Assembly (NCBI GenBank): GCA_951406725.2
Contig: OX597815.1
Coordinates: 22,816,001 to 22,880,000 of the forward strand
DNA: 64,000 bases
Origin: Octopus vulgaris
Lineage: Eukaryota
Direction of reading: 5' to 3'
Notes under the pieces: generated by a model
Told to the model about the DNA's origin: nothing
What the model saw: only the letters and a program-made list of their open reading frames with translations
Database searches by the model: none
Position numbers and translations under genes: made by a program
Shown here: positions 2,110-44,200 of the stretch, in pieces
How the letters are laid out: each line of letters begins with the position of its first letter
Position numbering within the stretch: the stretch's first letter is position 1

Positions 2110-5100
2110 AAGGTTGCCACAAATAGAGCAGTAAATGAAGTACAATATTAAACTATTACCTAAGTGTAAGTGCATTAGTCATAAAACAGCGTTGTTAGTA
2201 TAGAGCTAGAATGCAAAAAGCAGTATTTATGTAATGTAGTAAAACTATACACTATACAATAATGATTCCATGACTACAGCCAATAGTTATCATATCACTA
2301 TCATGTGTAATAAATACTAAATCCTAATGTATCCTTGAGAGTGTATTTAACAAGTACTAATGTGTCAGCTCAAGTTTCTGTATATTTTTCTATTAAGTGG
2401 TCCTTCACCTAAATATAAAGAGCATTCAGTTTGGACAATTGTTCTGTATCATACCCAGCAGTCTCAATTACAGCTTGACTTATTGGAAAGAGGAGAGCAT
2501 CCTAAATAATGAAGGATATAATGGTGTGTATTCCATCTTTGGTGTTGTGCTATGTTAGTGGAAAATACATTTTTTTCTTTGATGGGCCAATCTTTGGGCT
2601 ACAGTTAGGAATTATGTAAAAGCCCCTTGTGGGTAGTAAAGAAATAGGTATTTAGTCTGTTGCTACGTCCTGAGTTCAAATTCCGCCGAGGTCGACTTTG
2701 CCTTTCATCCTTTCGGGGTCGATAAATTAAGTACCAGTTACGCACTGGGGTCGATGTAATCGACTTAATACCTATGTCTGTCCTTGTTTGTCCCCTCTGT
2801 GTTTAGCCCCTTGTGGGTAATAAAGAAATAGATATTAGTGATATTTAAGGCGGTGAGCTGGCAGAAACGTTAGCACGCTGGGCGAAATGCGTAGCCGTAT
2901 TTCGTCTGCCGTTACGTTCTGGGTTCAAATTCCGCCGAGGTCGACTTTGCCTTTCATCCTTTCAGGGTCGATAAATTAAGTACCAGTTACGCACTAGGGT
3001 CGATGTAATTGACTTAATCCATTTGTCTGTCTTTGTTTGTCCCCTCTATGTTTAGCCCCTTGTGGGTAGTAAAGACATATATATATTGGTGACTCCACCA
3101 GTTAGAAACAGAGCCTAACTCTCTCCTATTGTTTTTAACATTGGGTAACATAGCCTTAGTTATGTACAAAGATGGGTAAAACTACAGCTGGGAAATCTTT
3201 CATCCCAGGCTAGCTCAGTCAATGTCAAGCTTGGTCTAAACAAGAATGACAGTAAAACAGAAAAATGTATATAACATTATTGAAAAGAGAATTCTGTAAA
3301 CAAAAACCACTTATAGATATATGCATCAATATTAGACTACTATGTTTAATAAACCAACCACTTATAGATACATGTAATAATAGTGGAATACTAAGTTTAA
3401 AAATTAAATTTTGCAATGTTTGCTTCACTCAGATGACTGAACATTTGCGACTGTGCACACGCGAGATGAATGGTTAACAACAGAAAAATACTGAGTATCC
3501 AGCCATAAAACACTTATGACAACAAACCATGTTGTTATGTCTTTAATAAAACAATAAAAAGCTTCCAGTAACAAAGGAAATATAACAAAATCTTTACTGC
3601 TTTATGGCTGGAGAAAAAGTATTTAGGCATTTAACCCTTTCGTTACCAAACCGCCCAAAGCCGCCCGAAAAAAATTTTGGTTTATGAGACCAAACCGCCC
3701 AAAGCTACCTGAATTTACCTATTCATATTTAAATGAGAATATCAGAGCAAATCTCTTCAGTACATTCGTGAAAACACGTATTATACTTCATAAACAGTTC
3801 AACTACAGTTTTGTACAATAATCAAAGTGTAATTTTAATTCCGTGAATTTTGGGAGATTTTTTTCCGAAATTTGTTCCTATTGTGTTTTCAAAATTTGTA
3901 ATTCTGACAAAAAATGGATACGAATTTCATTATATCAAGCAGCGAGTCAGAATTCGAAGGATTTTCTACTGAAGACCTTCATAAATCTAACTCTATGACT
4001 GAAAAAAAAAAGCATGTGGTATTTGATAATGAATCTGATGTTTCATTTTCCGAAAGTGAAAACAGGGAATCTGAGATCTCCGATAGCGATAAAGAAAACG
4101 AATTGGCACCTGAATGGAGTGAAAATTTAAAACTGTTTCTTTCGGTGATTTTTCTGAAGAAACTGGACCAAGCCACAGACTTTCCCAGAAGGGTAAAGCC
4201 TTAGACTATTTCTATTTACTTTTTAGAATGAGCCTATTTGAAATCATTACGGCAGAAACGAACCGTTACGCTAAACGTAAACAAAGCGAAAGAAAGGATA
4301 GTTTGCGGTTTCCCACAACCTTAAATGAAATTAAGACTATTTTGCCATAAATATTATTATGGGTATCAGAAAGCTACCCAGAATAACAAATTCTATCGTA
4401 AAATTTTGTTGTATACCCAATTGAATATTAGCTAATAACCCATTTTCTATAGCGATGTTTGAACAAAATTTTAATAATTTTATATTTTGTGGAATTTACC
4501 TGTATCTACCTGCAATTAGAGTCACTTTGTGACAAAAATTATAGTATAGAATTGGTTGAGAATATTTCATTAAATTATCTTCCAAAAATCAGATTAATAT
4601 ATCGATAAATAAAAAAGTTATAGTTGTTTAATGAAACCAGACTAAATTTATGATTACGTTAGAAATTAATTGAAACACATAAGGGGTGTAATTTGGTCAG
4701 AAATATAGTAACGAAAGGGTTAATGTAAGCTGGTTTATACTGAGTCCTTCTAGCATATTTAGATTGGTTTTTCAGATTTAATTGTTCTCTCAATAACCTC
4801 ACTTGCTTAATAATCTTAGTTATTTTGTTGTTCAAGTACCAGGTCACCTCTACTCCAGCAAACATATGTTCAAATGCATTTTAGCCATGACCATTCCATC
4901 TTTTTCACCCAGAAGATGTGTGTGTGTGTGTGTTTGTGTGTGTGTGTGAGTGAGTGAGTGAGTGAGTGTAATACAGACATGTACATGAAACAGCATTAAA
5001 TTAAATTAATGATGAGCATTATATTTATTAACAAATGTAGAACCATCATTAGCTATGATTCTCAATCTCAGAGAAACTTCTTAAAGAGACTTGTGCTTTA

Positions 5101-8700: not shown

Positions 8701-11700
8701 CAGTCAGTGCTAGCAACCTTGATATCCTCCTTCCCAGTATCTATAAAGCACCTTTCCATCTACAAGGAGAAGTAGAGGACAAAACAGGTCAAACTCCAAT
8801 TATATGTTGCTGTTCCCTTGGTAATACACCTATATGACTTCATCATCATCATTTAGCATCCGCTTTCCATGCTAGCATGGGTTGGATGGTTCGACTGGGG
8901 TCTGGGAAGCCAGGAGGCTGCACCAGGCCCAGTCTGATCTGGCAATGTTTCTACGGCTTGATGCCCTACCTAACGCCAACCACTCCATGAGTGTAGTGGG
9001 TGCTTTTTACGTGCCACCAGCACAGGTGCCAGATGGGGCTGGCAAAATTTTATATTCACTATTAATAAATAAACCTAAATGTAAGTTATTTAAACATATG
9101 GCATGTAAAAATGTTTAAATGTATACTGTAATATATTAGAAAACTGCCTTCCAGTACCCAAAACATGTGACTGTAGCTGCTGTGTTTTTATACAACTTTA
9201 TAATATAAAAGTCCTAAGGTGGAAGAAAGTGTCAACTACATAAACTGTTGGCAATCCTCTTGCAAGAAAGACTGACCAATCCCTACTCTTGACCTTAAAA
9301 GATAGATTGTACATGCACCAGGAAAAGCATTAATCATTATGTCATGTTGACTGTTCTTATCAGATGATTTAGAACAAAACAAATAACAATAAACTTATTG
9401 TATACTTATTGTATACAGTGCTATTTAGGTAGAATTTTATCTCAAATCAAATTGATTAAAATTTACATCATAGTACACATAATGGACGAAGTGGTATTTT
9501 GTTGGAAGTGAAAATATAAACTAATGCTTACTGCCACAAACTGGTTGTTTTCCATTCGAATGATATCACCAACAACAACTTTGTGCCATTTTTCTTCAAC
9601 CATTTGACCATCACGAAGCACAGAGGAAATACGATTATTAACCTGGTTGTCACTTCGATGGCGTTGCTAAAGAAAAATGTATATAAATAAAAATCCTTCA
9701 TACATACCTACATTCATATATGAATATATCAATAAACAAATTCTACACACACACACATGCACACATGCACACACACACATACACATGCACACACACACAC
9801 ACACACACATACATACATACGTGCATGTAAGATAGGTGTGTAAGTATAAATGATGTCATGTAAAAATATTTTTAGGAATATTTGATAAAGTTATACATTT
9901 TCAAATCACTTATTGGAAAAATCTTAATTTAGAAAAAAAAGAATTTTCATTTATATTTTTAGGGGAAGGATAGTAATGAAAATATAAAACTTCCTTTGGC
10001 TTTTATTTCTTAGATTTTATAAAACCAGAGCTACAGCTTAAAACACATAAAATGCATTTTACAGTGACTGATTCATATCCTAGCAACATTACTACTTTGG
10101 CTACAAAACTAGAGGAAATACAATAGCTGAACCTATATAAAATTCAAACAATCAATTCAGATTTACCTCTCTCATAAACTATATAGACTTTCAACAGATG
10201 TCTTTATTTTTTGCTTCCTTTACCCAACCTACATCCACTTATAAATAAATAGTATTATAAATAAATAGACATTTATGTCTGTTTATTTTGCAAATCAATT
10301 TCAAGCTAAAATATTACTGATCATCAACATCATCATCATTTACCATCCATGTTCCATGCAGCCATGGGTTGGATAGTTTGACAGGACCTAACAAGTCCAA
10401 GGACTGCATCATGCTCCAAAGTTTGCTATGGTATAGTTTCTAAGGTTAGATGCCCTTCCTAATGCCAACCACTTTACAGCATGTACCAGGTGCTCTTTCA
10501 TGGTACCAGCACTGCTGAGGTTATTTCTTTTGACTTTGTATTCTTTTATTCTTGACTCTTTACATTTCAATTTCAAACCCCACCATGGTCAACTTTGCTT
10601 CTATCCCTCCAGGGTTGGTAAAATAAAGTACCAGTCAAGTACTGTGGTCAAAATGTATCAGTTAAGCCTCTCCCCTCAAAATTGTTGCCCTCATGTCCAA
10701 ATTATAAACCATCGTTATTTGCATCGTAATTATCATAAGTCAACAGAATGGCTGAACCAACAGGTGATATTTAGTTAGATTACTGATCTTCTGAGTTCAA
10801 ATACTGTCAAAATAAACTTTGCTTCCTATAAATAATTACTTCACACACTGGTGTTAATTTATCAGCTGCCCTTTTTCTCATAACGTGCAGCCTTGCGTCA
10901 ATGTTAGAATCATTATGACCAATATCACCATCATTTTATTACTGGAGTAAGAGCTGTGATGCAGCAGTAAGGTGTTCATGAGTTGTGTTTACTACATGAA
11001 TTTGCTTCCTATATTAGCACTGCTTCAATGTACAGCATTACTAACTTGGGGAATATATTACTGCCCAAACTTCACCTTCACTGAAATACTGAGACTGAAA
11101 CCTTATAAGAAATAACAGTAGTATACTGAGGTTGATTAAATCAACTACACCTCTTCCTGTCACAAATATGTGGCTTTTTGCCAATGTGAGTAATATATTT
11201 AATATTAATTTTATGTAAGAAATCCTCATTACTACTACAATGTTTTTATTATCATCATCATCATCATCATCATCATAAGTTTCCCAGATTTGGTACAGTG
11301 CCTAACTTGGTTCCTTGCAGTTCAAAGCCCACAGGACCGGAGTTCTCATCCTCAAAGATTGATTAAATACAGTAAAATGAAATGGCTGATTTACCCACAC
11401 AAATCCTTTTCACAGCAAAATTGGATTCCATTTTGATCAATTGCATTATTGCTGCTTAATTCTATATAGTATTTCATATATTTTTACTATACTGTTCCTA
11501 GCAAGATGATGAGTAGTAATACCTCTTGGAACTAGCAATCATAACCACCAGCAGAGACCTCAAATGCACAATCAACTAGATAGAATTTCTAGCATGCTAA
11601 TGGTGCTATTTTGATCATCAGTAAAGTAAATAAAAAATCTCTGACAACCATGGCAGAAATCCAGCTCATAACTGTAAGGTATCAAATATTTTTTCCATTA

Positions 11701-14700: not shown

Positions 14701-17700
14701 AGACATAATAAAAGACAAGGAAAGAAAGTAGAAGACAATGATAGAAAGAATGCAAAATTAAAAGAAAAGGAAAGAAGAAAAAAAATAGGAAAATAAACAG
14801 CAAAATCAAAGCAATGATAAAAAAAAATATGGTGTGTGTGCATATAAACAATGTAGTACATTAATAATTCACATACTGACCCATTGTGGCCATAGTAAAA
14901 AGAACCAAAACTTACAACGTCATCTACCAAATCCTTTAATGCAGTAATGGCAAGTACCGCCACCATTGGTATCAGAGTAGTTAGAGGGGTCAAAGACGAG
15001 ATCGGGGGGATGAACTGGCAAGCAAAAACCAAAACAAATCATAATAAAAGAGAAAAGAGATTGCATAAATAAAGATAAACCATTTTTTTAAAAATGTCTT
15101 TTAGCACCATAGTAATGATAGGACAGAGTTTATTTCAACAAATGCACTGCCAAATGCATGAAACCTTTGATAAGGATAGAATTTATCATTAATTTATTAT
15201 CGATGAAGTCATATATTTAATAAAACTTAGTAGATTCTCTAAGAATTCATTTCAAAAGATAATAAATCTTGTTTGTTAAGAACAGGTTTTCAAAGATATC
15301 ACTATAACATATGACACTTAGAAAATGTTTAACCCTTTCGTTACTGTATTTATTTCGAGATGCTCTGTGTTTCTTTCAATTACTTTAAATATAACAAAGA
15401 ATTTAGTAAAATAACTTAGTTATCATTAAGCTAATGTTAGGAATATAAATTGAGACTAAGGTTTGGTGGAAGATTTTAATTCCAAGCTTATGGAAACGAA
15501 ACATTTGTACTCAGAGCCAGGTTTTAGCCGGGTTGGTATCAAAAGGGTTAAGTGTAATTTTCTACCTGTATATTTCCTGTTTCCATGCATTTGACAGTAA
15601 ATGTATTAAAGGCTTTGTCCATTCAATAATGTTGTTCACTGATGGATTTTTAGTTTTTATATTTTTTGCAAACATGTAATGTGTGAACAAGCCCGTATGT
15701 CACATGAACTAGTTCCCCATTCCTGCCTATGATTTAACCCTTTAGTATTTAAACCGGCCATAACCAGCCAAAATATCTAATCTGTTTTATGTTCAAATTG
15801 ACCAGATCCAAGCTCTCACACCTACCTTACAATGTTATTCTACATTAGGTAATTATGCCATCAAGATCTTGAAAATATGAGATAATGCATGATTAATTCA
15901 AATCAATGGGAATTAATAAGCATTATGTTTGATAGAATAATTAGAACACTAAAGGGTTAAATAAGCCCTATGTCTCAAGGGTAAGCTTAGTAGAGCAAGA
16001 GACTAACAAAGTAAAGTATAAATAAACTAGCAGAAGGCAAAGGGAAACCATTGTCACATCATTCTTAAGAAAATTGGCTTTGGCAAGGAAATCCATGACA
16101 ACCAGTGCCTATCAACATGGGCACATAAAAAGAGATACATGCAACAACTTTCTATAATTACAAATATATAATGATAATCTTAGGTTAAAACAATACACAC
16201 AAAAAGAGTTCAATGCATCTGAATGTAGCATTATACATTTTATTTATACAAAAAAGTATCCAACAGTTGTACAAACTTTCCAAACCCATAAATGATACGC
16301 ACACACAAAAAAAAAAAAATCCTTTACCAATTATGTTTTTATAGGGTAAAAACTGTACCTTCTATGATTATTTCACAATTCTTTTCTCTCCCCCAATGTT
16401 ATATGAGGCAAAATAGCTTAAAATGTGTTTATATATATATGAAAATAAGTTATGATAGTCTTTAATCATAAAATATTACCATCAATTAAAAACAGATGGA
16501 TCTATAAGCTCAACAAGTTAAATAGAGCAGGAAATAAGACTCAATATTTTTATTGGATCTATAAAGCTATAAATATTTGTAAGATTTTTCAAACTATCAA
16601 TCTCATCCGTCATATCTTTTTATTAGACATTTAGATATTCAAGTAACTGTTTTGATATTTTCAATGTACAATGATATTAGACATTATAACAAATAATTTG
16701 AGACAGAAAAGATGAGTAGGTATATCAATGAGTCAAGCCATGCATATCACTTATCAAACAACTGTCTTATTAGTTTCACTACACATTCATTATCTGCAAT
16801 GCAATCAGTAACATGGTTACCCAATGAGTAACAGATAGATGATTTAAATGGAGTAGGTCCCATCAGTGAACCTGTTTGCCCTATCTGTCTCAAATGCATG
16901 CTAATAATATCTGATCAGACAGATTTCTTTTTTTCTGAAATTAGATCATAAGCATAATACCATACCAAATAAGCTACATTTATTTTTATATTTTACATTA
17001 CTTAATTGAAAAAAATAAATAAATGAATAAATAAAAATAACTCATCAAGTGAACAACATTTCAAAAGAAAATACATTTCCCTCATAAAATACATAAAACC
17101 TTATATATGAATATATTTCCCACATTTAATAAAATAATATTTATATGAAACAATATATATATATATATTATATATATATATATATTATATCATATTATAT
17201 TACATATATTTATGCATGTGCATATGTGTCTTTTGTGCATTTTGCAGTTGCAGAAAATTGTAAAGAACAATCCCAGCAAAGTCTTATATATAAACCAATT
17301 AAAGATATGTTTCTTGTGCAGAGACATATCTAGAATTATCATAGAAGTCTATTCTTAGCCAAATGTTACAGTGATAAAGTAAATACAGCTGTTGGAGTAT
17401 TATATATGACATATATCAATATTCATAGGGCAAGTAAGGCAGGAAGCTGGCAGAATTGTTAGCACACTGGGCAAAATGCTTAGCAGCATTTCATCCATCT
17501 TTACATCTTGAGTTCAAATTCTGCTGGAGTCGTCTTTGCCTTTCGTCCATTCTGGGTCAATAAAATAAGTACCAGATGAGCGCTGGCATCAATTTAATCG
17601 ACTTACTCTTACACAAAAAATTTATTATTACAATAAGCAATAAGTCGCACATGAAACATTAACGATATAAATCTTCTAGCTCACAGGTTGAAATGATATA

Positions 17701-20700
17701 TCTCAATTAAATGCTTCAGTATACTAAACTCTTGGATACAGCAATAAATATTGCTTACCCAGCAGAAAGTCATCACCAAATGCTATTGGTGAGTAATTTA
17801 CAGGCTTGTGCAGGAATTTTATTAACAAAATATATTTGTGATCTTTATAGAAACCCTAGCAAATCTTGCACAACAACATCTGTCTTAGACATCTGAAATT
17901 CTACATATGACACAAAAAAAATTCACTTGAAGCCAAAATTTTTTCAGCTGAACATAGAAAACAGTTTTATTTTTTTACCATAAATACAATAAAAGTTATA
18001 AGGTAGAATCAACAGAGTCCCAAACAAAGCGTTGTGTAATGTTTAGTAATATATAATTTATGTTCTACTTTCATGGTCATCTTTGCTTTTATATCAGCTT
18101 TCATACATTAGTAAAGAAAGTACCATACAAATACTGGAGTAGAAGTAATTGGTTTACCCCATCTCCAAATTTTGTGACACTGAACAATGCTAAAAATCAA
18201 CATTCAATTAAAATTCATTATCTATTTATAAAGTAACTTTCTTGGCTACAAATATCCTTCTGAGATAATTCTAAAAATAATACAAACAAAGAAATTTGTG
18301 TACTGTAATTTTTTGATGACAACAAAACTTTATGAATAAACACTAATTTTATAGAATAAATACATTCAATTGATCAGAGCTCGTGAGCTAGTTTCAATTC
18401 CCACAATTTTTTAGTGTACTTCATTTACATGTGAATGTGCATGAAAAGCCCACAAGTATATTTTGTTTTTACTTTGTTCAAATGCAAAAAAATACTTATA
18501 AATTTTTCATACAGAGGTTTAAAGGGTTAAAAGTGAATTTATATGGGAACTATTTGAACAGACCTTTTACAGCAAGTCACCAATAAATTGTGTGAATTTG
18601 AAACCATTTTTACTCACAGGCAGTTGGAATTGTTAATTGCCACATATGTGCAAATAACAATGTCAATTACAGGGTTTGAAATCATAAGCGTTTGGCACCA
18701 AATCCAACTTATTAAGTAATCAATTACTAATATCAGATTCTTACATAGATAAGAAACCTAAGGTTTTTAAAGGACATTTTGCATTCAAGGCATTTTAGAG
18801 GCTAATTTTCCTTTCAAAGTATTGCAGCAAAAATTACAAGTACTCAAATTTTTTTAGCTTCTAAAAAAGAAAAAAACAATAAATAATGAAAATAATTATA
18901 ATAATTTAGCACTTTTGTGATCACCATAGGTAACATGAATTTAGCACTTTTAGAATCAGCCAAAGGTAACATGAAATGAAATATACCCAAATTTCACTTA
19001 CTATGTCATCAATAGCACTTTTAATGGCACTGAGTCCCAGAACAGTGACTAACGGTATGAATGTGGCAATTGGATTCAGAGATGACACCTGTGGAATCAG
19101 CTTTTATGACAAAATACTCCATTATTAATGATGTCTACATCACAGATGACTTTATCATTTTCAAACTATTTAAAGAAATTTATGAAATTAATTAAGGAGA
19201 TTTGCTGAATTGTCTAAGATAATATGACCTTTCTTAACCAAATATATTTTCCTTTTCCTCAAATAGAAAAATTATGGTCTCTTAAAAATTGGCGGTAACA
19301 TCTAGGAGAAAGACTCTTCTACCCAAGATAATGTCTATGAATGATTACAGAGGTTGTTGTATTAACTATAAACATATGGTTCTACAGAGAGAGAGAGAGA
19401 GAGAGAGACTTGGGAAACCTACGATGCTAAAGGCACGGTTTTTATAATAGTTTCCTTCTGCTACTTGTTTTATTATTGCTAAAAGCATTAGAACCTAGTA
19501 AATTTATCCAACAACTATTCCAGCACCAACATCACTATCCTCCAACATTGACTTACTTGAATATATTTTTAATATGCCAGATAAAAAAAAAAAAGAAAGA
19601 AGGAAATGCCAATCAAAAAACAAAGGTTTGTTTCTTCAATGGCATTTTCTGATTAGCAATCTTCTATTTTCCACTAATATAAAAATGAAGAAAGTAACAT
19701 GAGCTCCTTGAAATGTGGATGTAATCAATTTCTTCTATACAATTCTAAATCACAATTTTCAAAGTGTTTAGACTGGCCAACTAAAGGATTCAGCTGTCTT
19801 TAATCTCTTACATGGAAAGTTTCCTGTCAGATTGCAGAACACAATTATAAGTCCTCAGACATGCATTATCAACTCTGGTATTCTTCAAGATTTGTTTTAT
19901 ATTACCCAGACTCTCCCTCTTGTATGTTAACAACTTAACCTGCAGTCACCTCAAACAACAGTCATTCCTATCCAAATTATAGCATTTTTGTTCCTCCTTA
20001 ATATTCTGAATATAGACATACAACCAACCCTAACACCACTTTCCAAATTTACACTGCCCTCATGAATAGAGAACCCAAAACCATTCTCCAGTGGGAACAA
20101 GATAATCTTGCATAAAGACATAATCACTGCACAAAATGCACAGACACAGTCTTGTGCATCACACTCTCTCATCTGGGACAACATGTAATTCAAACCCCAC
20201 AAAGCTGCAGCAAGTGACAAGCAATTCAAACTTTCTACAAATCCCGTTTCACAATAACTGAAGATCTTTCTTAAGAAGATTGTGAAACCCATTATTTGTA
20301 ACATAACTGTGTCTCAGAGAATAACTTTCCTCTTATTAGCTTTAGAAAATACTTCAGTTCAGTAGCAATTTATACATTACTTTATAAATGGTACAGACTA
20401 TTCACTTCCTCTTTGAAGTGTACATTTACAATATCTATATCTATACTACGCGGAGGCGTGTGGTTTAGTGGATCATACGATTGCGGTTTCGATTCCGGGA
20501 CCGGGCAACACGGTGTGTTCTTGAGCAAAACACTTCATTTCATGTTGCTCCGGTCCACTCAGCGGGCAAAAATGAGTAACGCTGTGATGGACTGGTGTCC
20601 CATCCAGCTGGGGAACACATACGCCATAGAAACCGGGAAACCGGGCCCATGAGCTTGGCTAGGCTTTAAAAGGGCGCATTTATTTTATTTTATATCTATA

Positions 20701-23700
20701 CTACATTAAAATCAACTCAGTTTTTAACAGTCATCCTGGATGTGTAGATAATCCAAAGCCAACAGTACTAATATTGTTATCTATAAAAACTCCCAGAACA
20801 TGCACAGCACTGGCTTAGTAAATAATGAAATTACTTTGCTCAGTTTAGAAATGAATGTTCCTAGTTTGGATCTAGTATGGGGACCATGTACATCATCATC
20901 ATAATTATTTAAAAGTCACTTTTCTTTACTTGCATGGGTCAGATGGAATTTGTTGAAGCAGATATTTCTATGGCAAGATGCCTTTCTTGCTGCTAATGCT
21001 CAACTATCTCCGAGCAAAGTAATAATTACCCATAGGCAGATATGTTTCTCATAGAAGACTAAAATCAAATAACCTTGCTTATATGATAACAATGTACATT
21101 TACAACTATCATGTGGTATCTAGCACAAGGGTACACACACATGCATACACACACGCATGCACACACACAGTATACCTATCTATCTATCTATCTATACACA
21201 CACACACACACACACACAATGGGTTCTTTTCAGTTTCATCATCATCATCATCGTTTAACATCCGTTTTCCATGCTAGCACGGGTTGGACGGTTTAAATTC
21301 ATTCACAAGGCTTTGGTGGGCCTGGGACTATAGTAGAAAACACTTGACTAAAGTACTGCCCAATGAGATTGAATCCATGATCACACAGTTGGGAAGCAAG
21401 CTTCTTGACCAGGCAACCACACCTGCATACCTGATCGAAACATAGCATAACTGTAAATATTGGTAAATCCTCATCATTATCATTTAGCATCCGTCTTCTA
21501 TGCTGTCTTGGGTTGGACACATTCTAATGATGAGTTCAGTTTTAACAACAATTCTCTCAGACAAATTTGATATTTAACATAGCTCATTGTAATTTTGTTA
21601 GTAGGTAGTACGTCCAAAAGACTTTGAAACAACAGGGTCTTCAGCTGTAGCTGTAAGTTTATATAATTAACATAAAAACACTAAAAGGTTTACTATTATA
21701 AAATTGTAGCATTTTTGTATGTCATTGCCCTTAATAAGTCATATCAATTTCACCATAACTTGCCTGGTATATTTCAGAATGGAATTTCTCCATTAGTCAA
21801 TCCCTAGCAACTACTTACATTCCAACTCTAATTTTTTTCTTTTTTGTTTTTCTTTTTCTATACTAATCCTTATTATTACCAAAAAGACATGCCAAATTAT
21901 AACACTTTTTAAATAATATATGCCATATATCATTCAAAAATGATAAATCACCAATCCTTCTTGCCAACCGTGATCAATATTGTTAATTCAAAGACACACA
22001 CAAATACATACAACAGAGTAAGTAAATCACTTTCAGCTCATTGCACAAAGGTGGAAGTACAGTATTTGTTTACATACCTGTAGGATAAGGAGAATTAGAA
22101 AATAAGAATTGGCAAGTCGCCGGAACTGCTCAAATAAGTTCTTGGGAAGAAATGTAAAAACATTGTACTTGGATGTACTGATGTAGTTAGTCTGAAATTA
22201 AAATAAATGACATTGGTTCTCTAGGTGTCAACATTGGGAGAATTCTCAACAGAGAATAGCTGGAATCAAATTTACAAATCATAAAAACAAGCAAGTGCAT
22301 AAGAAAAGAATCAATTATGGTGTGATTTTGAAGTCATTATAGTATGCTGCCCATCACTCTGATGAAGCAAGCCTGAGGGTCTAAGTCATCATCATCATTT
22401 AACGTCTGTTTTCCATGCAAGCATGTGTTGGACGGTTCGACCGGGGTCTGGGATGCCAGAAGGCTGCACCAGGCTCCAAACTGATCTGGCAGTGTTTCTA
22501 CAGCTGGATGCCCTTCCTAATTTCAACCACTCCATGAGTGTAGTGGGTACTTTTTACATGCCACTGGCACAGGTGCCAGGCAAGGCTAGCAATGGTTACG
22601 ATCGGTTGGTACTTTTTACGTGCCACCAGCATGGAAGCAAGTCAAGGCAGCGCTGGCATCAGCCACGTTCGGATGGTGCTTTTTACGTGCCGCCGGCACA
22701 GGGATCACAACTACAATTTCCATTGATTTTTGATTTTGATGTACTTGACTCAATAGGTCTCCTCAAGCACAGGGTCGAAACAGTGTTTCTTTACTTGCCA
22801 CGTGCACAGGAGTCAGTCCAGTGGCACTGACAATGGCCAGGTACCAGTCATAGGATTTGGTTCAATTTTGTTTGAGTGGTTAAATGAATTTTTAACTGAT
22901 TGAATATGAGTTTAATTTTCTACCACTCATAAGAGTAATACTTTGATAGAAGATGCAGCAATGTAAGTCTACATGAAACTTTTGCAAGAAATTTAAGATA
23001 TCAGCAATTCAGTCTGCTTTAGTTCCTAATAATTCAGTTTAATACTTCAGTAATAAAATCATCATCATCATCATCATCATTTAACATCCGTTTTCCATGC
23101 TAGCATGGGTTGACGGTTCGACCGGAGTCTGGTAAGCCATGGAGGCTGCACCAGGATCCAGTCTGATTTGGCAGTGTTTCTACAGCTGGATGCCTTTCCT
23201 AATGCCAACCACTCTGTGAGTGTAGTGGGTGTTTTTTATGTGCCACTGGCACAGGGGCCAGAGCAGGCTGGCAAACAGCCACGATCGGTTGGTGCTTTTA
23301 CGTGTCACTGACACGGACGCCAGTCAGGCAGCGCTAGTATCTGCCACGTTCGGACGGTGCTTTTTACGTGTCACCGGTACAGGTGTCTTAAGAATAACAA
23401 ATTAGAATCATCTCGTACTAAGTATAGTTTCTTATAAATTAGAGCCTCAAATTTGATACCAGCACTTGTTCATTCTGAAAATATTGAGACACTACTTATC
23501 TTGGTTTTAGTTATAGGGAGCTTTTAGGTAAAAACAGTGCCTAAAATCTATTTAATATTTTAAAGCAACTCTAAATAGGAATTTTTATTTTAACATTTTT
23601 ATACAGGTTTTTACATGCTGATATGTTTTTATAAATTCAGATAAGCTTTTAAATGAACTGCTGGAAGATAGACTTTATAACGGGATGCCCTTCCTCAAAG

Positions 23701-26842: not shown

Positions 26843-29800
26843 TAGCAATAAAAATTGGTGATGGTAGGAAAGTAATGAAATAACATATCAAAGGAGGGCA
26901 TATATGCATATAAAATGAGTATATTTGTAACTTACATTAGTACACAGCATAAAGGAGACAAAAAAACACATGAAAATATATCTATGTAACAGCTGTGAAA
27001 TGTGTGTACACATGTATATGTATGTGATCATATATACATGAGCAGGTGTATCTATACAAGTAAAATGGGATGTATCAAAAATAAAAATTAGCATTGAACA
27101 AGTATTGATCTTCAACTTGAAAACAATGTTGGAAGGAATTAGCAACAAAACAAAAAAAAAAGCAAAAATATATGAAACAATACAAATATCATGTTGTTGT
27201 TGTTGTTGTTGCTGTGGAGGAGGAGGAGAAGGAGGAAGTGGTGGTGGTGATTCAGCTACAAGTAAGCTCTAATTAAGCAAACTGATGAAAAAAAGTGTTC
27301 CAGTTGTGACCATCCATGCTTTTGGTATTTCAAGAACCATTTTGTCTCATGTATCATCTATATTATAATTCTGTCTGTTCATTCATTCACACATTGTTAG
27401 AGAGAGGGGGAGATGGAGTGAGTGAGGAGCGTGTATAAAGTAAAGTAAATATGATAAAATACTGCATAATAAGGAATATGCAATTATATATAGATCTCAC
27501 AGTTTCAATAAGATTAAATACTAACAAATATATGTATTAAGTATTGTATAGATTGTTATTGTTTATTTTTCTTCCATTTATTACACAGGCAACAAGATTT
27601 ATAGGCAATAAAAATGCAAATCATCCTTTCTTTCTTAAATAGCTCCCCTTAATTCTTTTTATTCCATGGAATTTCCATAAATCCTTCTAGTCTTTTTTTA
27701 TTAAGGTAATGAGAAAATTTGTCTACTTCTAGCAGCATGAGTGCATGTACCACTTGTATACCAGAAAATATTTATGACCAATATTGTCTCTGGATAAATA
27801 TGATACTTCTATAGTAACTAGAGAGATTACTATATCTATAAAGTGCTACTAGTAAATTTCCAAGGTACATTAACATAGTAAAGAGGTACTAACTGTTTAA
27901 TTTCATAAAAAACCAAACCAGTAGACTAATAAAAATTTGGTTGCTATAGCTGTTAAGTGCTATCTACTCAAGCAAACCTAGGTGTAATGCAAAGACACAG
28001 CTGAAACCTGGAGAGTTTGTTTCCTATATTCATTCTGATATTCATTCTATATTCCCATATTCTATATTCCTATATTCATTCTATATTCCCATATTCTATA
28101 TTCCTATATTCTATATTCCTATATTCATTCTATATTCCCATATTCTATATTCCTATATTCTATATTCCTATATTCATTCTATATTCTTATATTCATTCTA
28201 TATTCCCATATTCTATATTCCTATATTCATTCTGATATTCATTCTATATTCCTATATTTATTCTATATTCCTATATTCATTCTGATATTCATTCTATATT
28301 TCTATATTCCTATATCCATTCTGATATTCATTCTATATTCCCATATTCTATATTCCTATATTCATTCTGATATTCATTCTATATTCCCATATTCTATATT
28401 CCTATATTCATTCTATATTCATTCAGATATCCATTCTGTCTGAGACCATGTTCTACTTCCCATAATGCAATGTCTGGTTGCGTGAAATGTGACGTGACAA
28501 TTGGAAAATATTATGTAATGTTTATGGGATAACCTGTCTGTGTTGTGCTAGGTGCATACTACACTTAACACAATCTGATTGCATTACATTGTAGCAACTT
28601 GAGCACTTTGTGTCTTTAAGCTAATGTGATAATTACAGTGAAATTCAGCAAAGTGAATGTTAGTTTGTTTTTCTCCTAAAATATTAAAGATTACTTGAGG
28701 AAAATATTTGTGCTTTTAGTTTACTGAGTGTATGTGCCCTTTTGTGTTAGACTGGCAGCATTATGAAGGCATTAAAGGAAATAATGCCTTTGGTAAGGTT
28801 TCAACCTATGAGTGTTTCTAACTTCAAAAGTTCATTTATGTGATGACTACTTACGGCATATCCAAACTGGAGGTTATATTCAGCATTGTTGACTTTAATT
28901 CGGCGTTCGAGTTCTATAAAAAAAAAAAACAAATTACAAGTCATTTCTTATTTCTAACTAAAACTGAAATAAATCAAAAGTATATAATGAACACAATATA
29001 TAAATAACACAATTAAGAAACCCAACCGAAACTGCAGAGATGTTAACAGAGCATCTTGGTGCCAAGAGATTAAAATAAAACACATGTATATATCTTCAAT
29101 TTCAAATTATGTAGATGAGGAGGAGGTAGGGTATATAGAGTGAACTGTATGGTGACTATGTGAGTAGTATATGTAATGTGTGTTAGTAAGTTGTATACCG
29201 TAAATCCTTGAGTATAATCCGCGTTTTTTTCCCAAAAATTTAAAGGTCAAAATCCCTAGTGCGTACTATATACGAGGTTAAAAATGAAAAATATTTTCTA
29301 AGCAATGTTCGAGTCTCTATTTGCTGTCCGGCAATGTTTATTCAGATGCATTTTGTGATGTCGGGCACGAAAATACCTTAAGCTAAGCCTAAAAGCAATG
29401 AAGTCATAAAAGAATCATCCATAACTTGCAGTAAGCAACATTTATTAAACGTTATTACTGTTATGTCTTTATTTTCTGCAAACAAAATGCACAAAAAGGC
29501 TACACGTTTGCATTATGTTATATATACAATAATAATAATAAAGGACGTTACTGTATACATTTTTACAAACCAAGGACGTTATATAGACCTCCTTAACTCA
29601 AGTTAGAGAAGGGGTGTGTATTATACACAAAGTTTAGGTTTTTCAGAGGTACAGCCCCCTAAAATCCCCTGCGTATTATACTCAAGGGCGGACTATACTT
29701 GTGGATTTACGGTATACGAAAATTATTACATGCTAATTAAATTTGCAGGGATTCTATCCTGACGTTTGATGATAAATTTCCTCAAATGTCAAGAATTTTT

Positions 29801-32800: not shown

Positions 32801-35800
32801 TACGATAGAATTTGTTATTCTGGGTAACTTTCTGATACCCATAATAATATTTATGGCAAAATAGTCTTAATTTCATTTAAGGTTGTGGGAAACCACAAAC
32901 TATCGTTTCTTTCGCTTTGTTTACGTTTAGCGTAACGGTTCGTTTCTGCCGTAATGATTTCAAATAGGCTCATTCGAAAAAGTAAATAGAAATAGTCTAA
33001 GGCTTTACCCTTCTGGGAAAGTCTGTGGCTTGGTCCAGTTTCTTCAGAAAAATCACCGAAAGAAACAGTTTTTAAATTTTCACTCCATTCAGGTGCCAAT
33101 TTGTTTTCTTTATCGCTATCGGAGATCTCAGATTCACTGTTTTCACTTTCGGAAAATGAAACATCAGATTCATTATCAAATACCACATGCTTTTTTTTTT
33201 CAGTCATAGAGTTAGATTTATGAAGGTCTTCAGTAGAAAATCCTTCGAATTCTGACTCGCTGCTTGATATAATGAAATTCGTATCCATTTTTTGTCAGAA
33301 TTACAAATTTTGAAAACACAATAGGAACAAATTTCGGAAAAAAATCTCCCAAAATTCACGGAATTAAAATTACACTTCGATTATTGTACAAAACTGTAGT
33401 TGAACTGTTTATGAAGTATAATACGTGTTTTCACGAATGTACTGAAGAGATTTGCTCTGATATTCTCATTTAAATATGAATAGGTAAATTCGGGCAGCTT
33501 TGGGCGGTTTGGTCTCATAAACCAAAATTTTTTTCGGGCGACTTTGGGCGGTTTGGTAACGAAAGGGTTAAGTTGATGTAATTTTTCTCTCAGCAAACAC
33601 AAATTTTTTTAGACTAACACATAGTCTCCTATCCTTACACATAACCACACTTCTGTCATGCAATATACTTTAACTGAAATTATTATAACACTGCTGTATA
33701 TCAGCCCTAGAATAAACATAAGCAGTAGACAAGTACAATATATATTTCTTTACTATCCACAAGGGGCTAAACATAGAGGGGACAAACAAGGACAAAGGGA
33801 TTAAGTCGATTACATTGACTCCAGTGCGAAACTGGTACTTTATCTATCGACCCCAAAAGGATGAAAGGCAAAGTCTACCTCGGTGGAATTTGAACTCAGA
33901 ATGCAACGTCTGACAAAATACCGCTAAGCATTTCGCACGGCGCACTAACATTTCTGCCAGCTCGCCGCCTTGACAAGTACACTATAACCAACCCATAACT
34001 GCTATAATTATATTTTCCTACAACATAACAATCATCACTTGTCACAGAACAGCAAGTTAGGGAAAGTTAGAAGCCAGATGATATAACCTATACCTGTCAT
34101 AAATACTCAATAAAAAACTGTCAACAGATATTAATTCAGGTAATTACTATTGTGTTTAATTGACTTCACCTCCACCACAGACCACCCTACTTTAAACAAA
34201 ACATTTTTGCAATACCATTTGTCAGCTGATACTGACATCTTCGACATATCCAACACCTTAACTGGGATACTGTCCTCTTTCTCCTGCTTTCCTTGCTGCT
34301 GCATCTCCACACGTTTAAGGCTATTTTACATAAACAATCTAAACTCAAACAAAAACTCTGGCTAATGAAACACGATCTTCATTTTTGTTTTGATTCATTA
34401 TATATTTGTAGCTATTTTCAACTAATCAACATTCTAATATTGTCTGTTATAAAGAAATGAAATCATTACAATGGAAGAATAGAAATGACATCTACTTTTA
34501 AACAGATATTTTTAAAGACACTTTTTAAGCAGTTCATACAGGAAACAAATGAAACAGATGCTATCAGAGATAAGTGGGGAAACAAATTTGATTGGATCAG
34601 CTTACAGTTGGCCTGCAAAGAGACACTTGGTTGTTATGATACATTGGAAGATCTCTGTCCTCATCATGTACAGATATCAAAAATAGAGACAAGAGGAGCT
34701 CACTGGGATGAATAAAAGATTTTAAGTGGGAAACAAATTTGATTGGATCAGCTTACAGTTGGTCTGCAAAGAGACACTTGGTTGTTATGATACATTGGAC
34801 AGGGCGAAATGCTTAGCGGTATTTCGTCTGTCGTTACGTTCTGAGTTCAAATTCTGCCGAGGTCGACTTTGCCTTTCATCCTCTCGGGGTCGATAAATAA
34901 GGTACCAGTATCGCACTGGGTCGATGTAATCGACTTAATCCCTTTGTCTGATATATTTTAGTCTTGTCTACAATTCTGTAGACAAAGAGAGAACTTTATA
35001 TGATTATTGCTGGTGTCAAAACGTAGTGCAAGGCTACACTCAAATCTAGAACACTGCCTTTGAAATAATAACCTGAATAAACAAATAAAATGCAAATAGT
35101 AATGAAAATAAGTAGTTATTATTTTCCACAAAAGGATCAATTCTAATATTAAGAAGCAAAATGGTTAAACTAATGATAGTACAAAAAGAAAGATAATTGT
35201 AGATTCAATATACCAAAGTGTGTTTAAAACATATATAGTCTTACTATAAAATGTAACTTGGGAAATATACACAAGGTTTACAACAGAACAGTGACAGTAG
35301 TGAACTGACTTCACAGTCAGTGGCAATTTTGCAATATATGTATGGCATTAGTGTAAAAGCAATTTCTTATCAGTTGTCAGATTCAACAATGATATGTAAG
35401 TCATTTTCCACTTTGAGATGTTATTTTCAATATGCCTATAAGCTGTATCTTTTCAGCTCTACAGTGATCAAAGTTAAATGAAACCTACCAAAATCTTAAA
35501 ACGGTTTGAAATTTTGCAATCAAGTCAATATTCATACAGAGAAATACTAACACAATCTGGCTAAATTTAAACTTAGAGATTATGTTAATGATTCCCTCTG
35601 CTACTACTCTATGTTCCTTAATTTGTACAGATCAGATGACAAAAGAAACATGATGTAGTAACAGAGTCTATCATCAGCTTCAAACAAATATATAATAAGT
35701 ACAAATAATGAATAGGCAAAAGATACAGGGGACATTTGTCATAATGACAAATAACCAGATGTATGAGATCTTAAAAAAAAAAGATATACAGGAAATAAAG

Positions 35801-38246: not shown

Positions 38247-41200
38247 ATATATAAGCAACAGGATATCAAGCAGTGGTGCAGTAAGACCGTTTCAAATGGC
38301 TCCATTTAACTGAACAATGCAATCATTACATCAATTTATTTGCACAAATAAATAAATAAATAGAATTTTAACAAGTAGGACACATATAATTTTTCTCAAA
38401 TATTTTAACAGAGCAAGTAGATCGAAGAAATTTATGTTCTCACTATTGTAGCTAAGAATAGACTACTCTTCCAAGAATTGCATGAAGCCTATTGCAGGCA
38501 TAGTGTTGTAAGGGATTGTAATTCATTTCTAATTCATTTATCTCTTTATCAACTACTAAATCTAAGACTAGAAGACTGTGTCCATTTTGAATAAAGGACA
38601 AGAGTGAGTTGACAGCTCATGGCTAGGTATGGTCATAAATATTGTCATATGTATCCCTTTTCCTCAGGGAGGAAAGAAGGCATTAGGAGTAGTCAATTGG
38701 ATACAAGTAACTGTTTACAAAAAGAGGCTGGGAAGGGGAAGACTTTAAATCATGATGTTAATTATCAGTTAAAGGGGCAAGATGCAAAGAAACCTAAGAA
38801 GTTAATACAGAGGAAATTTTATTTTGGGGCACTATTAGTGACTGTTTATAAACAATATTGTTATGTTGTATAAGAATAAAATTTAAGATTTTCAAAAGTG
38901 ACATCATAACCAAAATAGGTAAAATGTGTGTATCAGTTATAAACATTAAAAAGGAAAGAGTACATAATATCAGTTTAATACTCATTCGTGTATTAATTAC
39001 TTATTAGGTGGTTTCTATAAAGACTGCTCAGGGCATTTACTTATGGAAGAACAGGAAAGATATACATGCTATCTATTAATTTTAAGCCATGAATCAGAAA
39101 AAGTAAAGATGCATACAGATACACACACATTTATGTATGTGCATATAAACATATATATACATACACAAACATTTATACATTTATATGGATATAGTATATC
39201 CATCTTGCATAGACTTAAGTAAATGAAAAATATTTTTTAAGAACAAGAAAAGTAACAATTTGTAAGAGATAAGAGGTTAATAGGTTCATGTGATTCTTGG
39301 AAGTGTAGTCTATTCATAGCAATAATAGCAACAACATGAATTTCTTCCATCTTCTCGCTCTGTTAAAATATTTGAGAAAAATTATATTAATGTGTCCTAC
39401 TTGTTAAAATTCTATTTATTTGTGCAGCTGAACATGGCACTGCATTTAAACTGATATAATGATTTCATTGTTCAATTAAATGAAGTCACTTGAAATGGTC
39501 ATACTGCATCACTACTTGACATCCTGTGGCTTATTTTGATTTTATTCACCTTACTTCATGCTGTGTGAATACTGGACTGACTTGGTGCTTCAACTTAAGT
39601 ACATAATTCAAATGAATCTCAATTATTTCTTATATATCTATTATATAAAATCCTTTCTGTCTGTCTGCATGTGTGTCTTCTAGGATCACGGGCATCCTCC
39701 ATCCAATTGCGCTCAAATTTGATATGTAGATACCGACGATATCAGGGCGTGTATAAGTCATGAAAAAATTACAAAAATCGATTCCAGGTGAGAATGCGAT
39801 CGATAAAGCCGTGGGAACGTGCATTTGTACGTGCAGGTACATCAGCTGTTGCAATGTACTTACTGGTACTTTAAACTCTTCGGCTGCATATTTGTGTGAA
39901 TAAAATCATTTTTCTTTGGAAAAGAAAAAAAGTCTATCTTCATTTCTTCTTTTGCTAGTGTCTCAAATTTAGGTTAAATCAATGTTTCTCAAAGGGGAGG
40001 CCTATGGGACGGTCGGACAAGTTGTTTTGAGAAAATTTGGTTTAAATGTCTGACAACTCAGCACCATCCATTGGATGGGGGGGGGGGCGTTTTGCTCGTA
40101 TATATATATAAGTTACTACCATGCGCATTTACTATCGTCACTTATTCATTTATTCAATTCTATCACATCGTCATTTATTTCTCTAATTTTGCCACAGATT
40201 GGCTGACTGAAAATTCTAAGATTGTTCAATTCTACTTCACTGTTATCAGCATTTGCTGTTTCATTAAATTATGTTACCCAAAATCCCAAAAGAATATTTT
40301 TCTCCCTCGTGTTCTATCCTTGACCAGCCTAACTCTGGCCCCTCTCTCTCTGTCTCTGTTTCGATAACCACTTGCTTTTCCAACACTTCCCCCACTCCCA
40401 CCACCCCACCCTATATAAACTAGCTCATTTGGATTCCGCTACTTCATCTTAATAACTCCGCCAAAAGAATACAAAACCAGATGTTCTTTTCGAATTCTGC
40501 TATTTCATGGTATGCCTACCCTCCACCCATACCCCCACCACCACCACCTGTACCGGAAGTCCCTGTCCTCTGATATCTTTTGGTTGTCTCCCATTAACAC
40601 TTCTATAGGCTTAATGGCATCCCCACCCCTACTTAGGGTTTATCTCCTATGTAAGGTATTGGTCATTTAGCGCATAAAAATGATGGTGTAGTGTATGCAG
40701 GTTGAAGGCTACTGAATTCTGCCAAATGAAAGCTTTCTTTTCAGGTACATGACGCTGCTGTCCCCCACTCCAGGGTCTCACAGGCCCACATCTCCCACAC
40801 CCTCTGGGTTGGCACACTCAACGTGGACACACTGAAAGGTAGGTCTGGTGAGATTGTTGAGATGCTTGAACGGAGAAGTAAGGTGGAGCGGAGGTTCTGC
40901 TAGGTTCCTCACAGGCAAAGAACATAGGTACAAGATTTTCTGGGCAGGGAACACTGACAAGGTCGGGGGCATGGGTATACTTCTTGTGGGGAAATGGGTT
41001 GATAAGGCAATCAAGGTAGTCAGAGTCTGCAATAGAATACTTAAGATTAGTGCTACATCATAGGTTAGCAACCATTATCTTGGCCAATGCCCCTCAGCCT
41101 GAAAGACAGAAAGACCGATTCTATCACACCCCCTTGCTGACGACTTCGTTGATGAATGACAGAGACCTTCTCTTTGTGGCTTGTGACTTCAATGGACATG

Positions 41201-44200
41201 TTGGGCAACATGCATGGGGCTTCCATGGCATACATGGAGGCTATGGTTTTGGTTCCTGCAATGAGGAGGGAACCAGGCTGCTGGAGTTCTACGATGCAAA
41301 TGATCTTATGGATTGCAACACTAACTTCAAGAAACCTGCCAGTCACCTAGTCATCTACTGATCTGGTAGACACACTAGCCAAATTGACTACATCCTTGCC
41401 AGAAAAAGGGAAAGATGGCTGCTTATAAATGCCAAAACCTTCCCAGGTGAAGAATGTACCCCACTACATAGACTAGTAGTTAGTGACTTCAGGATAGGGC
41501 TAAATAGATGCCCAGAAGATGACCAGCATGGAGGAAAAGGGTCTGGAAGCTTAAGGATCCTGCAAATGGACAAAGATTTAGAGACGTATTACTCAAAGCT
41601 TTTGACAAAATAGAGGGAGATATAGCTTCACATGATGTGGAAGACAACTGGAGGTTTCTACAGGACAACCTGCTGAGAGCCACTGACCAGATCTGTGGAT
41701 GGTGCAAAGTCTCCTCTTGACCTAAGATAATGTGGTGGTGGAACAATGTTGTTAACAGAGCCATTAGGGGAAAAAAACAGGCTTGGAAGGACTGGAAGAA
41801 TGGTGATAGACTGCCAGAAGGGAAGCTAGGAGACAGGTTTATTTAGCCAGAGAGGAACCAGATAAGAAAAAATTTGCCAATGTTCTGTGCCATGAGAACC
41901 AAGGACTTAAGGTATTTCATGTTGCAAGACAGTGTGTGAGAGAGAATCGTGATGTTGTAGGAGAGAAATGTGTCCGCATGGATGATGGTTCGCTTGCATT
42001 AAACAAGGCTGCAAAGAGAGACACCACTATGAAAGTACATTATTAACATTATTTACATCTGACAGATATTTGTCTTCATCTTGTTTGTTAACAACAAATA
42101 TCCATCAAATGTAAATAATGTACATGATTCCTCATTTCTTAAATATAGAATTCCACTACGAAAGGTTGCTAAATAAAGAGAATGAATGGGAGAAAGAGAG
42201 TCTGCCAAATGCAGACCCAACAGAGGAACCAGCTATCCAAATTGACAGCACCTTGGTAGATAAAGCAATTAAGGGTATGAGACAGGAAAAGCCCTCGGCC
42301 CATCAGGAATCACTGCAGAGATGCTCAAAATATCTGGTGGTGTCAGCTATAGCCTAGTCACCCATATAGTCAACCAAGTGATACATGAAGGATCATACCT
42401 AATGACTGGCATAGCAGCACCATAGTCAACTGCTACAAAGGTAAAGGTGATGCTTTAGATACAATTAATTACAGAGGTATCAAGTTGTTGGATCAGGTAA
42501 TGAAGGTCATTGAGAGGGTCATAGCCCAACTAATTAGGGAGAGAGTTAGTCTAGATGAGATGCAGTTTTGGTTCATGCCTCTGGTAAAACAGCTATAAGA
42601 GAAATACCTAACCAAAGATAAACCTCTGTACCTAGCTTTCATTGACATGGAAAAAGCTTTTGACAAGGCCCCCTTATCCCTTATATGGTGGTCAATGAGG
42701 AAACTAGGGATAGATGAATGTTTAGTGAGAGCTGTGCAAGCCATGTACAGGGATGCTGTCAGTAAGGTGAGGGTTGGTAATGAGTACAGTGAAGAATTCG
42801 TGTAGGAGTCCACCATGGATCAGTCCCCTCTTATTCATCATAAGAGAGGCAATAACAGAGGAATTCAAGACAGGATGCCTCTGGGAGCTCCTCTATGCTG
42901 ATGACCTTGCTCTAATTGCTGAGTTACTACAAGAACTAGAGGAAAAGTTTCAGGTGTGGAAACAAGGATTAGAATCGAAGGGCCTTAGAGTCAACCAAGC
43001 TAAAACCAGTCTTAATAAATAGAAAGGCAGACAAACCACAAATATCTTCAGGTAGATGGCCCTGCTCAATCTGTAGAAAAGGCGTAGGTAGAAACTCCAT
43101 AGGATATACCCAGTGTAAGCTATGGACACATAAGAGGTGCAGCAATATCAAAAGAAGGCTAACTAGGAAGATAGTTTTTGTATGTGGCAAATGCTCAGGA
43201 GCAATAAACACTGAAAATGTGCAGAAAACAGCTTCCATCACATTCCAGAGGGAAAAACTACAAGTATTTGATAGTATCTGTTAACTAGGTGACCAAGTCA
43301 GTAGCAAGAGTGAATGCTCTGAAAGTGTAACTGCTAGAACAGCCTGAGCAAAGTTCAGAGAGCTCCTACCTCTGCTAGTGACAAATGGCCTCTCACTCAG
43401 AGTAAAAGGTAGACTATGACGCATGTGTACGAACAGCCATGCTACATAGCAGTGAAAAATGGGCTGTGACTGCTGAGGACATGAGTAAGCTTGCAAGGAA
43501 TGAAGCCAGTATGCTTGAAGAATGACCTTGGAACATTGGGCCTCACCAAGGCAATGACTAGTGACCAAGACCTTTGGAGATATGTTGTGCTAAAGAAGAC
43601 CATAACCCATGACCTATGCCAGTGGTGTATAACCAGCCCAGTTATGAGTACCCTTACTTCATTGGACAATAAACTTTGCTTGCAACGACCTGTTGAGGCA
43701 AGTGAAATCAAAATTGCTGACATGGCTGATGATAGTACCACCTGATTGGCACTCATGCCAGTGGAACGTTAAAAGCACCATCCAAGTGTGATTGTTGCCA
43801 GGGCTGCTGAATGGTTCTTGTGCCGGTGGCATGTAAAAAGCACCATTCGAGCATGAGCGTTTCCAGTGTCACCTTACTGACACGTGCTAGTGACATGAGA
43901 AAAACAACATTCAAGCATGGTCATTGCCAGTGCCACTGGACTGGCTTCCATGCAGGTGGCACGTAAAAAACACCTTTTGAGCGTGGTCATTGCCAGTACT
44001 ACCTGATTGTTCCTCATGCTGGTGGCACATAAAAGCACCCACTACACTCTGGGAGTGGTTCGCATTAGGAAGAGCATCCAGCTGCAGAAACTTTGCCAGA
44101 TCAAGACTGGAGCTTGGTGCAGCCTTCTGTCTCGCCAGTCCTCAGTCAAACCATCCAACCCATGCCAGCATGGAAAGTAGACTTTAAACGACGATGATGA

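Follow-up and report, generated by a model that had tools for sequence, protein, structure and literature searches.

Can a single flippase gene encode two proteins that are alike in everything but the gate that handles the lipid? The question is raised by a 64,000-nucleotide (nt) stretch of the Octopus vulgaris genome (assembly GCA_951406725.2, contig OX597815.1, positions 22,816,001 to 22,880,000; hereafter the window), whose minus strand carries exons of a P4-ATPase gene. Between the exon for the first transmembrane helix (TM1) and an exon starting with QRHRSD lie two further exons, A and, downstream of it, B, each of which encodes a version of the TM1-2 loop and TM2 (Table 1). As the annotated isoforms of two other Octopus species document, A and B are duplicated alternative exons of one ATP8B gene, and we hold with great confidence that they form a functional substitution pair.

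The two exons had originally been predicted from the letters of the window, and the prediction could be reproduced in full: A and B are each 99 nt long, open, in phase 0 at both ends and bounded by AG and GTAAGT, and they encode the predicted peptides, which align without gaps with 16 of the 33 residues identical and 17 different (BLOSUM62 score 95). This match is far beyond chance, since among the 127,798 33-codon segments in the six frames of the window the best one overlapping neither exon scores 27; the same scan found no third copy of the exon in the window. At the nucleotide level A and B share 54 of 99 positions, distributed over codon positions 1, 2 and 3 as 19, 27 and 8 of 33. Near-random third positions next to conserved second ones are the pattern expected after long purifying selection, which, along with the absence of stops and indels, upholds the earlier view that both copies are under selection. 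The flanking TM1 and QRHRSD exons are both in phase 0, and the introns around A and B measure 2977, 3987 and 5249 nt.

The gene itself is, judging by the ranking of structure scores and by database names, a P4-ATPase of class 1b (ATP8B), nearer to ATP8B than to ATP8A, ATP11, Dnf or Neo1/ATP9. Residues 46-1236 of the O. vulgaris protein P0007 map letter for letter, in 22 blocks, onto the window plus the adjoining 40 kb, and this protein carries the DGET, PISL, DKTGT, GDGAND and C-terminal GYAF-type motifs. The P4-specific N- and C-terminal membrane domains (PF16209 and PF16212) score above their cut-offs in both isoforms, and the closest solved structure is that of human ATP8B1, with 1195 bits vs 894 for the ATP8A1-type 6k7g and 862 for Drs2.

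RefSeq isoforms usually rest on transcript evidence. The Octopus protein cluster has 14 members, 12 of which span the region (two are without the N-terminus): ten carry B alone, two carry A alone and none carries both. The A-only proteins are the X3 isoforms of O. sinensis (XP_036356467, P0004) and O. bimaculoides (XP_014790380, P0012). Whether the pair was already annotated had been left as a question by the original prediction, and the answer is that it is, as RefSeq isoforms in these two species. A protein search with exon A and its flanking codons returned no match; the cluster representative carries B, and the A forms were found in the member list. Adjacency, equal length and phase, and the occurrence of each exon alone in annotated Octopus proteins thus bear out the proposal of duplicated alternatives within one gene.

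If exon A were instead a decaying pseudo-exon, a paralogue fragment or an assembly artefact, its weak acceptor, the use of B by both O. vulgaris members of the cluster and the presence in the gene of two other partial exon copies, both decayed, would all be in keeping. Against this stand intact orthologues of exon A in three other octopods, the separate RefSeq isoforms that contain it, and a conserved protein despite saturated third codon positions. Exon A is identical to its O. bimaculoides counterpart at 32 of 33 residues and to that of Argonauta at 24 of 33, the values for exon B being 33 and 27. Moreover, in a genome-wide search exon A matched, among the best candidates scored, only exons A and B themselves, a single locus, which speaks against the origin from a separate paralogue or a misassembly about which the original prediction had been cautious. 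This explanation is largely refuted, and we give it hardly any credence.

Is the choice between A and B mutually exclusive, as had been predicted? In Octopus it appears so, with one unit in each of the 12 scorable proteins; the strict form of the claim stays doubtful, as two-, three- and zero-unit proteins are found in the databases elsewhere. Of 296 stored proteins, 243 have one unit, eight two, one three and four none; two have odd inserts and 38 are unscorable. Weighing against a strict A-or-B choice are two-unit RefSeq models in Crassostrea virginica (X1; P0135, P0138) and Argopecten (P0294), as well as zero-unit RefSeq models in C. virginica (X4), Mytilus edulis (X3) and Patella (X3). A and B could accordingly be two cassette exons that are included singly, jointly or not at all, the double and null forms being regulated inactive or degraded products. 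Such isoforms in oyster, scallop, mussel and limpet count in favour of this alternative, 99 nt preserves the frame in every combination, and no exclusion device was found in the splice sites, the intron lengths or a duplex test of 300-nt regions. It is opposed by the absence of two- and zero-unit forms among the 12 scorable Octopus proteins and among 23 Logan-only proteins picked from the match and member lists (exactly one unit in 23 of 23), by the fact that several of the two-unit entries are unnamed 'hypothetical' gene predictions, and by the topology, which double and null forms should break given that each unit is one hydrophobic helix. We regard the cassette explanation as quite improbable. 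Substitution of A for B is the rule in annotated proteins, with leakage possible as far as these sequences go.

What enforces the choice? The acceptor of exon A has 9 pyrimidines in 20 positions, equalling the poorest of the 21 other acceptors scored, and its AG-free zone is the shortest, while the acceptor of exon B is average (15 of 20); these strengths fit B as the default in Octopus. Two devices can be ruled out: steric exclusion, for which the intron between A and B is too long, and exclusion by frameshift-triggered decay, since 99 nt keeps the frame in every combination. RNA pairing near the exons was at chance level in a duplex test of nine region pairs of 300 nt, the best case being reached by one of 20 shuffles. 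In docking-site/selector systems of RNA pairing, of the Dscam type, a single docking site is complementary to a selector next to each alternative exon, with conservation and covariation; no shared-dock pattern was seen among the same nine pairs, a comparison confined to the octopus introns. Among the 25 longest of the 142 inverted repeats in the three introns, simple or dispersed repeats are in the majority. Our best guess for the exclusion device is a factor-driven choice.

To follow what the swap changes, we numbered the exon with the TM1 Gln as position 0; in this register it aligns without gaps to human ATP8B1 (V133 at position 2) and, by eye, to ATP8A1. That the exon carries lipid-gate residues, as predicted, is correct: positions 12, 13, 24 and 28 match published contact or selectivity sites in ATP11C, ATP8A2 and Dnf1. 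The more specific idea that the residue after the TM1 Gln (QL vs QF) acts as the switch had to be dropped. Position 1, the second residue of the QQ/GA motif (PMC12424579, PMC4937031), is L, V, I or F in A forms and L, F, M or V in B forms, without a class pattern, and the Gln itself lies in the shared exon.

Positions 12 and 13 are Thr143 and Thr144 of human ATP8B1. Thr144 has been equated with ATP11C Ser91, and Gln79, Thr90 and Ser91 of ATP11C hydrogen-bond phosphatidylserine (PS) in the occluded state (PMC12723151); the Thr90Phe substitution lowers ATP11C activity (10.1101/2019.12.23.881698). At the position matching Thr90, an outer-gate PS contact, exon A has Ala. All 15 B rows and all 18 single-copy rows have Thr at position 12; seven of the eight cephalopod-gastropod A rows have lost it (six Ala, one Phe). 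Thr13 is invariant in all rows, and Val20, at the hydrophobic-gate position, is present throughout. Positions 24 and 28 correspond to A119/E123 of ATP8A2 and T254/D258 of Dnf1, which are reported to couple with Y618 of TM4 to give head-group selectivity at the exit (PMC4937031). The octopus exons read Ser/Ser in A and Thr/Asp in B. Every B row (15), bivalve A row (7) and single-copy row (18) retains Asp28, and six of the eight cephalopod-gastropod A rows have another residue there (Ser in three octopods, Glu in three gastropods); 88 of 93 scorable distant P4-ATPases have Asp or Glu at this position. A shift in lipid handling between A and B is plausible on the strength of these residues, and we lean, if only slightly, towards a measurable difference; a clean switch of preferred lipid would be unlikely.

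Several observations count against a large or uniform effect on the lipid. The bivalve upstream exons alter other positions (Pro9-Trp/Phe10-Tyr11, resembling the Ala-Trp-Tyr of human ATP8B1 at 9-11) and keep both a hydroxyl at position 12 and Asp28, so that molluscs as a whole share no one functional change. Human ATP8B1 occludes phosphatidylcholine (PC), PS and phosphatidylinositol (PI) with nearly the same arrangement of side chains (PMC10657443), and the ATP8A2 loop mutants D99A and R105A (positions 4 and 10) shift rates only about 2-3-fold (PMC5585164); because of these two findings, the effects of the swap may be small. The pair could also be a genuine substitution that tunes something besides lipid choice, such as membrane fit, mobility or turnover of TM1-2, stability or tissue trafficking. 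Many of the 17 differing residues exchange one hydrophobic side chain for another along TM2, the residues with an assigned place in the structure (Thr13, Val20 and the TM1 Gln) are common to A and B, ATP8B1 is broad in substrate (PMC10657443), and TM1-2 is a mobile element coupled to the actuator domain (PMC12424579). Such tuning, however, leaves unexplained that the cephalopod-gastropod A changes hit three positions that have published head-group contact or selectivity roles and are otherwise almost invariant in the family. We take it to be a serious minority possibility.

How old and how widespread is the pair? We examined 20 further clusters of at most 15 members each, 9 from molluscs and 11 from other animals. 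All nine non-cephalopod mollusc clusters (Crassostrea virginica, Mytilus, Magallana, Biomphalaria, Patella, Mya, Mercenaria, Haliotis and scallops) contain two forms, as do the Littorina isoforms X1 and X2. Of the conserved relatives looked for by the original prediction, both exons have orthologues in octopods and counterparts across molluscs. More than one unit occurs in two of the 11 non-mollusc clusters, and both sets are larger than those of molluscs: the nemertean Lineus longissimus has four forms in separate isoforms (P0054, P0201-P0206), and the nematode Plectus sambesii has three units in tandem models (P0091, P0270, P0272). Lingula, Tubulanus, Branchiostoma, spiders, ticks, horseshoe crabs, Daphnia, roaches/termites and Trichinella have one form only, allowing for small differences between species. 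Among 150 representatives of distant P4-ATPases none has adjacent gate units (115 have one unit, 34 none and one a longer repeat). Two side observations concern usage within molluscs. In Babylonia areolata the A-type and B-type proteins (P0033 and P0047) lie on contigs of different length and may represent two gene copies, which might have shared out the exons. Among the bivalve members listed and the Logan-only proteins, the upstream Trp/Phe-Tyr form outnumbers the downstream one, and in Octopus the downstream form dominates, both being counts of members and not of expression.

Exon A is the diverged copy, because exon B is more like the outgroup single exon (65% alike vs 58% for A). Both in the window and in all five mollusc two-unit models (Argonauta, Littorina, Pinctada, C. 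virginica and Argopecten), the TPLTT-type unit lies downstream; Plectus differs in having its TPLTT unit first. In a tree of 55 units and 33 columns, eight cephalopod and gastropod A forms make up one starred branch (99/94), and seven bivalve upstream forms are placed apart from the other A forms, beside two Plectus Trp copies (88/88, unstarred). The same exon may have been duplicated several times (cephalopod-gastropod, bivalve, nemertean and nematode), as a recurrent hotspot, rather than once for all molluscs. The split of mollusc A forms in the free tree, the reversed order in Plectus and the single forms of Lingula and Tubulanus (two members each) favour independent events; the identical exon order in bivalves, gastropods and cephalopods speaks for one, and the approximately unbiased (AU) test does not reject a single A clade. 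We rate repeated duplication at just short of an even call. Two caveats apply: with 33 columns the AU test leaves both a single clade holding every mollusc A form (p 0.375) and a duplication confined to cephalopods (p 0.225) unrejected, and the A/B labels in species without a two-unit model were set by sequence likeness, which makes position-9 counts partly circular. Because neither alternative is rejected, age and number of origins rest on the shared order and the starred branch.

Taken together, we consider it probable that an old tandem duplication of the ATP8B exon for the TM1-2 loop and TM2 came to be spliced as an A-or-B substitution, with consequences for splicing and protein as follows. 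B, with its ordinary acceptor, would be the default and A, with its weak one, the regulated choice, with splicing factors or long-range RNA pairing as the probable controls. A 99-nt pair separated by 4 kb is beyond the reach of steric exclusion and of frameshift-triggered decay, so the exclusion may leak and be completed by protein quality control. B would keep the ancestral gate. A, as predicted from its residues, retains the structural Pro3, Thr13, Pro16, Val20, Lys27 and Asp31-32, lacks the outer-gate hydroxyl, having Ala in place of Thr12, and carries Ser at two exit-gate positions, where it replaces Thr24 and Asp28. These changes most likely retune lipid affinity or turnover, for instance through weaker PS-triggered gate closure, and would not create a new substrate class. 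A bolder extension is that several protostome lineages repeatedly duplicated the ATP8B gate exon and let its residues for head-group contact and at the exit gate diversify. Splicing would then switch flippase selectivity, one gene would cover the roles that in vertebrates fall to different ATP8B paralogues, and membrane asymmetry would come under tissue-specific control; we offer this tentatively and think it rather doubtful.

Table 1. Exon pair and surrounding features of the ATP8B gene (window positions)
Feature	Position	Strand	Remarks
Shared exon before the TM1 exon	28855..28913	(-)	residues ~46-64 of the 1236-residue isoform
Shared exon encoding TM1	22078..22191	(-)	114 nt; last residue is the entry-gate Gln (register position 0); single copy at the locus
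3' splice site of exon A	19101..19125	(-)	weak: 9/20 pyrimidines, AG-free zone 14 nt
Alternative exon A (TM1-2 loop + TM2)	19002..19100	(-)	diverged copy; Asn9, Ala12, Ser24, Ser28
Codon Ala12 of exon A	19067-19065	(-)	
Codon Ser28 of exon A	19019-19017	(-)	
Intron between A and B	15015..19001	(-)	3987 nt, GT-AG
Alternative exon B (TM1-2 loop + TM2)	14916..15014	(-)	ancestral-like copy; Thr9-Pro10-Leu11-Thr12-Thr13, Thr24, Asp28
Shared exon after the pair	9532..9666	(-)	135 nt; starts QRHRSD; beginning of the actuator domain

Elsewhere in the gene, a search for additional exon pairs found two partial copies only, both decayed and either without a proper acceptor or out of order. One, at window positions 2421-2483 (-), copies part of the next actuator-domain exon (2064-1984), to which it is 65% identical over 23 residues, and is without matching splice sites. 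The other (L005, 3596-3673, minus strand) duplicates the GDGAND exon at its 3' end, donor site included, and sits beyond the following exon; its intron sequence resembles the intron end before that exon, a remnant of a small local duplication. An alternative first coding exon at 55637-55684 (-) provides the N-terminus of isoform X4 (P0009); Octopus isoforms have four different N-termini, and those other than that of X4 were not found in the window. A search with the TM1 exon matched this locus and three paralogues, 61-65% identical, on other contigs. These are P4-ATPase genes on contigs C13, C19 and C7 (L024, L025 and L026), where the exon A search gave no match. Three near-identical repeat copies with broken reading frames, at ~3908-4347 (+), 32854-33294 (-) and 50848-51243 (+), are presumably DNA-transposon remnants, and broken frames inside 5' introns (~40730-43300 and 58813-59334, both plus strand) look like LINE-type (long interspersed nuclear element) endonuclease and reverse-transcriptase pieces.

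The way in which P4-ATPases select their lipid remains disputed, and reports on ATP8B substrates conflict (PMC11775268; related literature consulted: PMC11460456 and 10.1101/2020.06.24.169771). Natural isoform pairs with some 1,200 identical residues and a single differing 33-residue gate, long kept and available in several independent versions, are ready reagents, already filtered by selection, with which the outer-gate Thr and the exit-gate positions can be probed for their roles. Should the forms truly differ in lipid preference, splicing would, through the very path of transport, control membrane lipid asymmetry. The sequences can be found in public databases and the pair is implicitly annotated; what appears to be new is the recognition of the pattern and of how widely it occurs. 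The literature searched, outside which most subscription journals lie, yielded no paper on an ATP8B gate-exon pair, and the fly and worm tables of PMC9741552 could bear on novelty. The flippase splice variants described in PMC11775268 and in the ATP8A1 exon catalogue affect tails or the actuator domain. The interest here lies in a swapped piece that holds residues linked to lipid recognition, and in the same exon having seemingly been multiplied in several phyla.

Among known systems, C. elegans tat-2, an ATP8B orthologue, is likewise an invertebrate ATP8B-class gene with several splice forms; its isoforms, however, differ at their ends only (PMC2572054). Human ATP8B1, solved with CDC50A (PDB 7py4, 8ox4-8oxc, 7vgh), is the best solved relative and aligns without gaps over TM1-TM2, but has one fixed TM2 sequence, whose residues at 9-11 are nearer to the bivalve upstream exon and to a Plectus copy than to either octopus exon. 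The P4-ATPase rows examined in the human catalogue of duplicated exons are ATP8A1 (internal) and ATP10B (N-terminal), with no ATP8B event among them (PMC8373072, PMC9741552); in the main texts of the two papers 'ATP8' has no match, and two of five supplement matches compared are ATP8A1. Like the octopus gene, human ATP8A1 is a P4-ATPase with an internal duplicated exon pair, dated to Vertebrata, but the exon is a 25-residue piece of the actuator domain, not of the membrane gate, in a different subfamily. The closest parallel in kind is the class of tandem duplicated exon substitutions, or mutually exclusive homologous exons, which are common in membrane transport genes and which the octopus pair resembles in adjacency, equal length and phase, conservative substitutions, age and repeated origin in different phyla (PMC8373072, PMC9741552).

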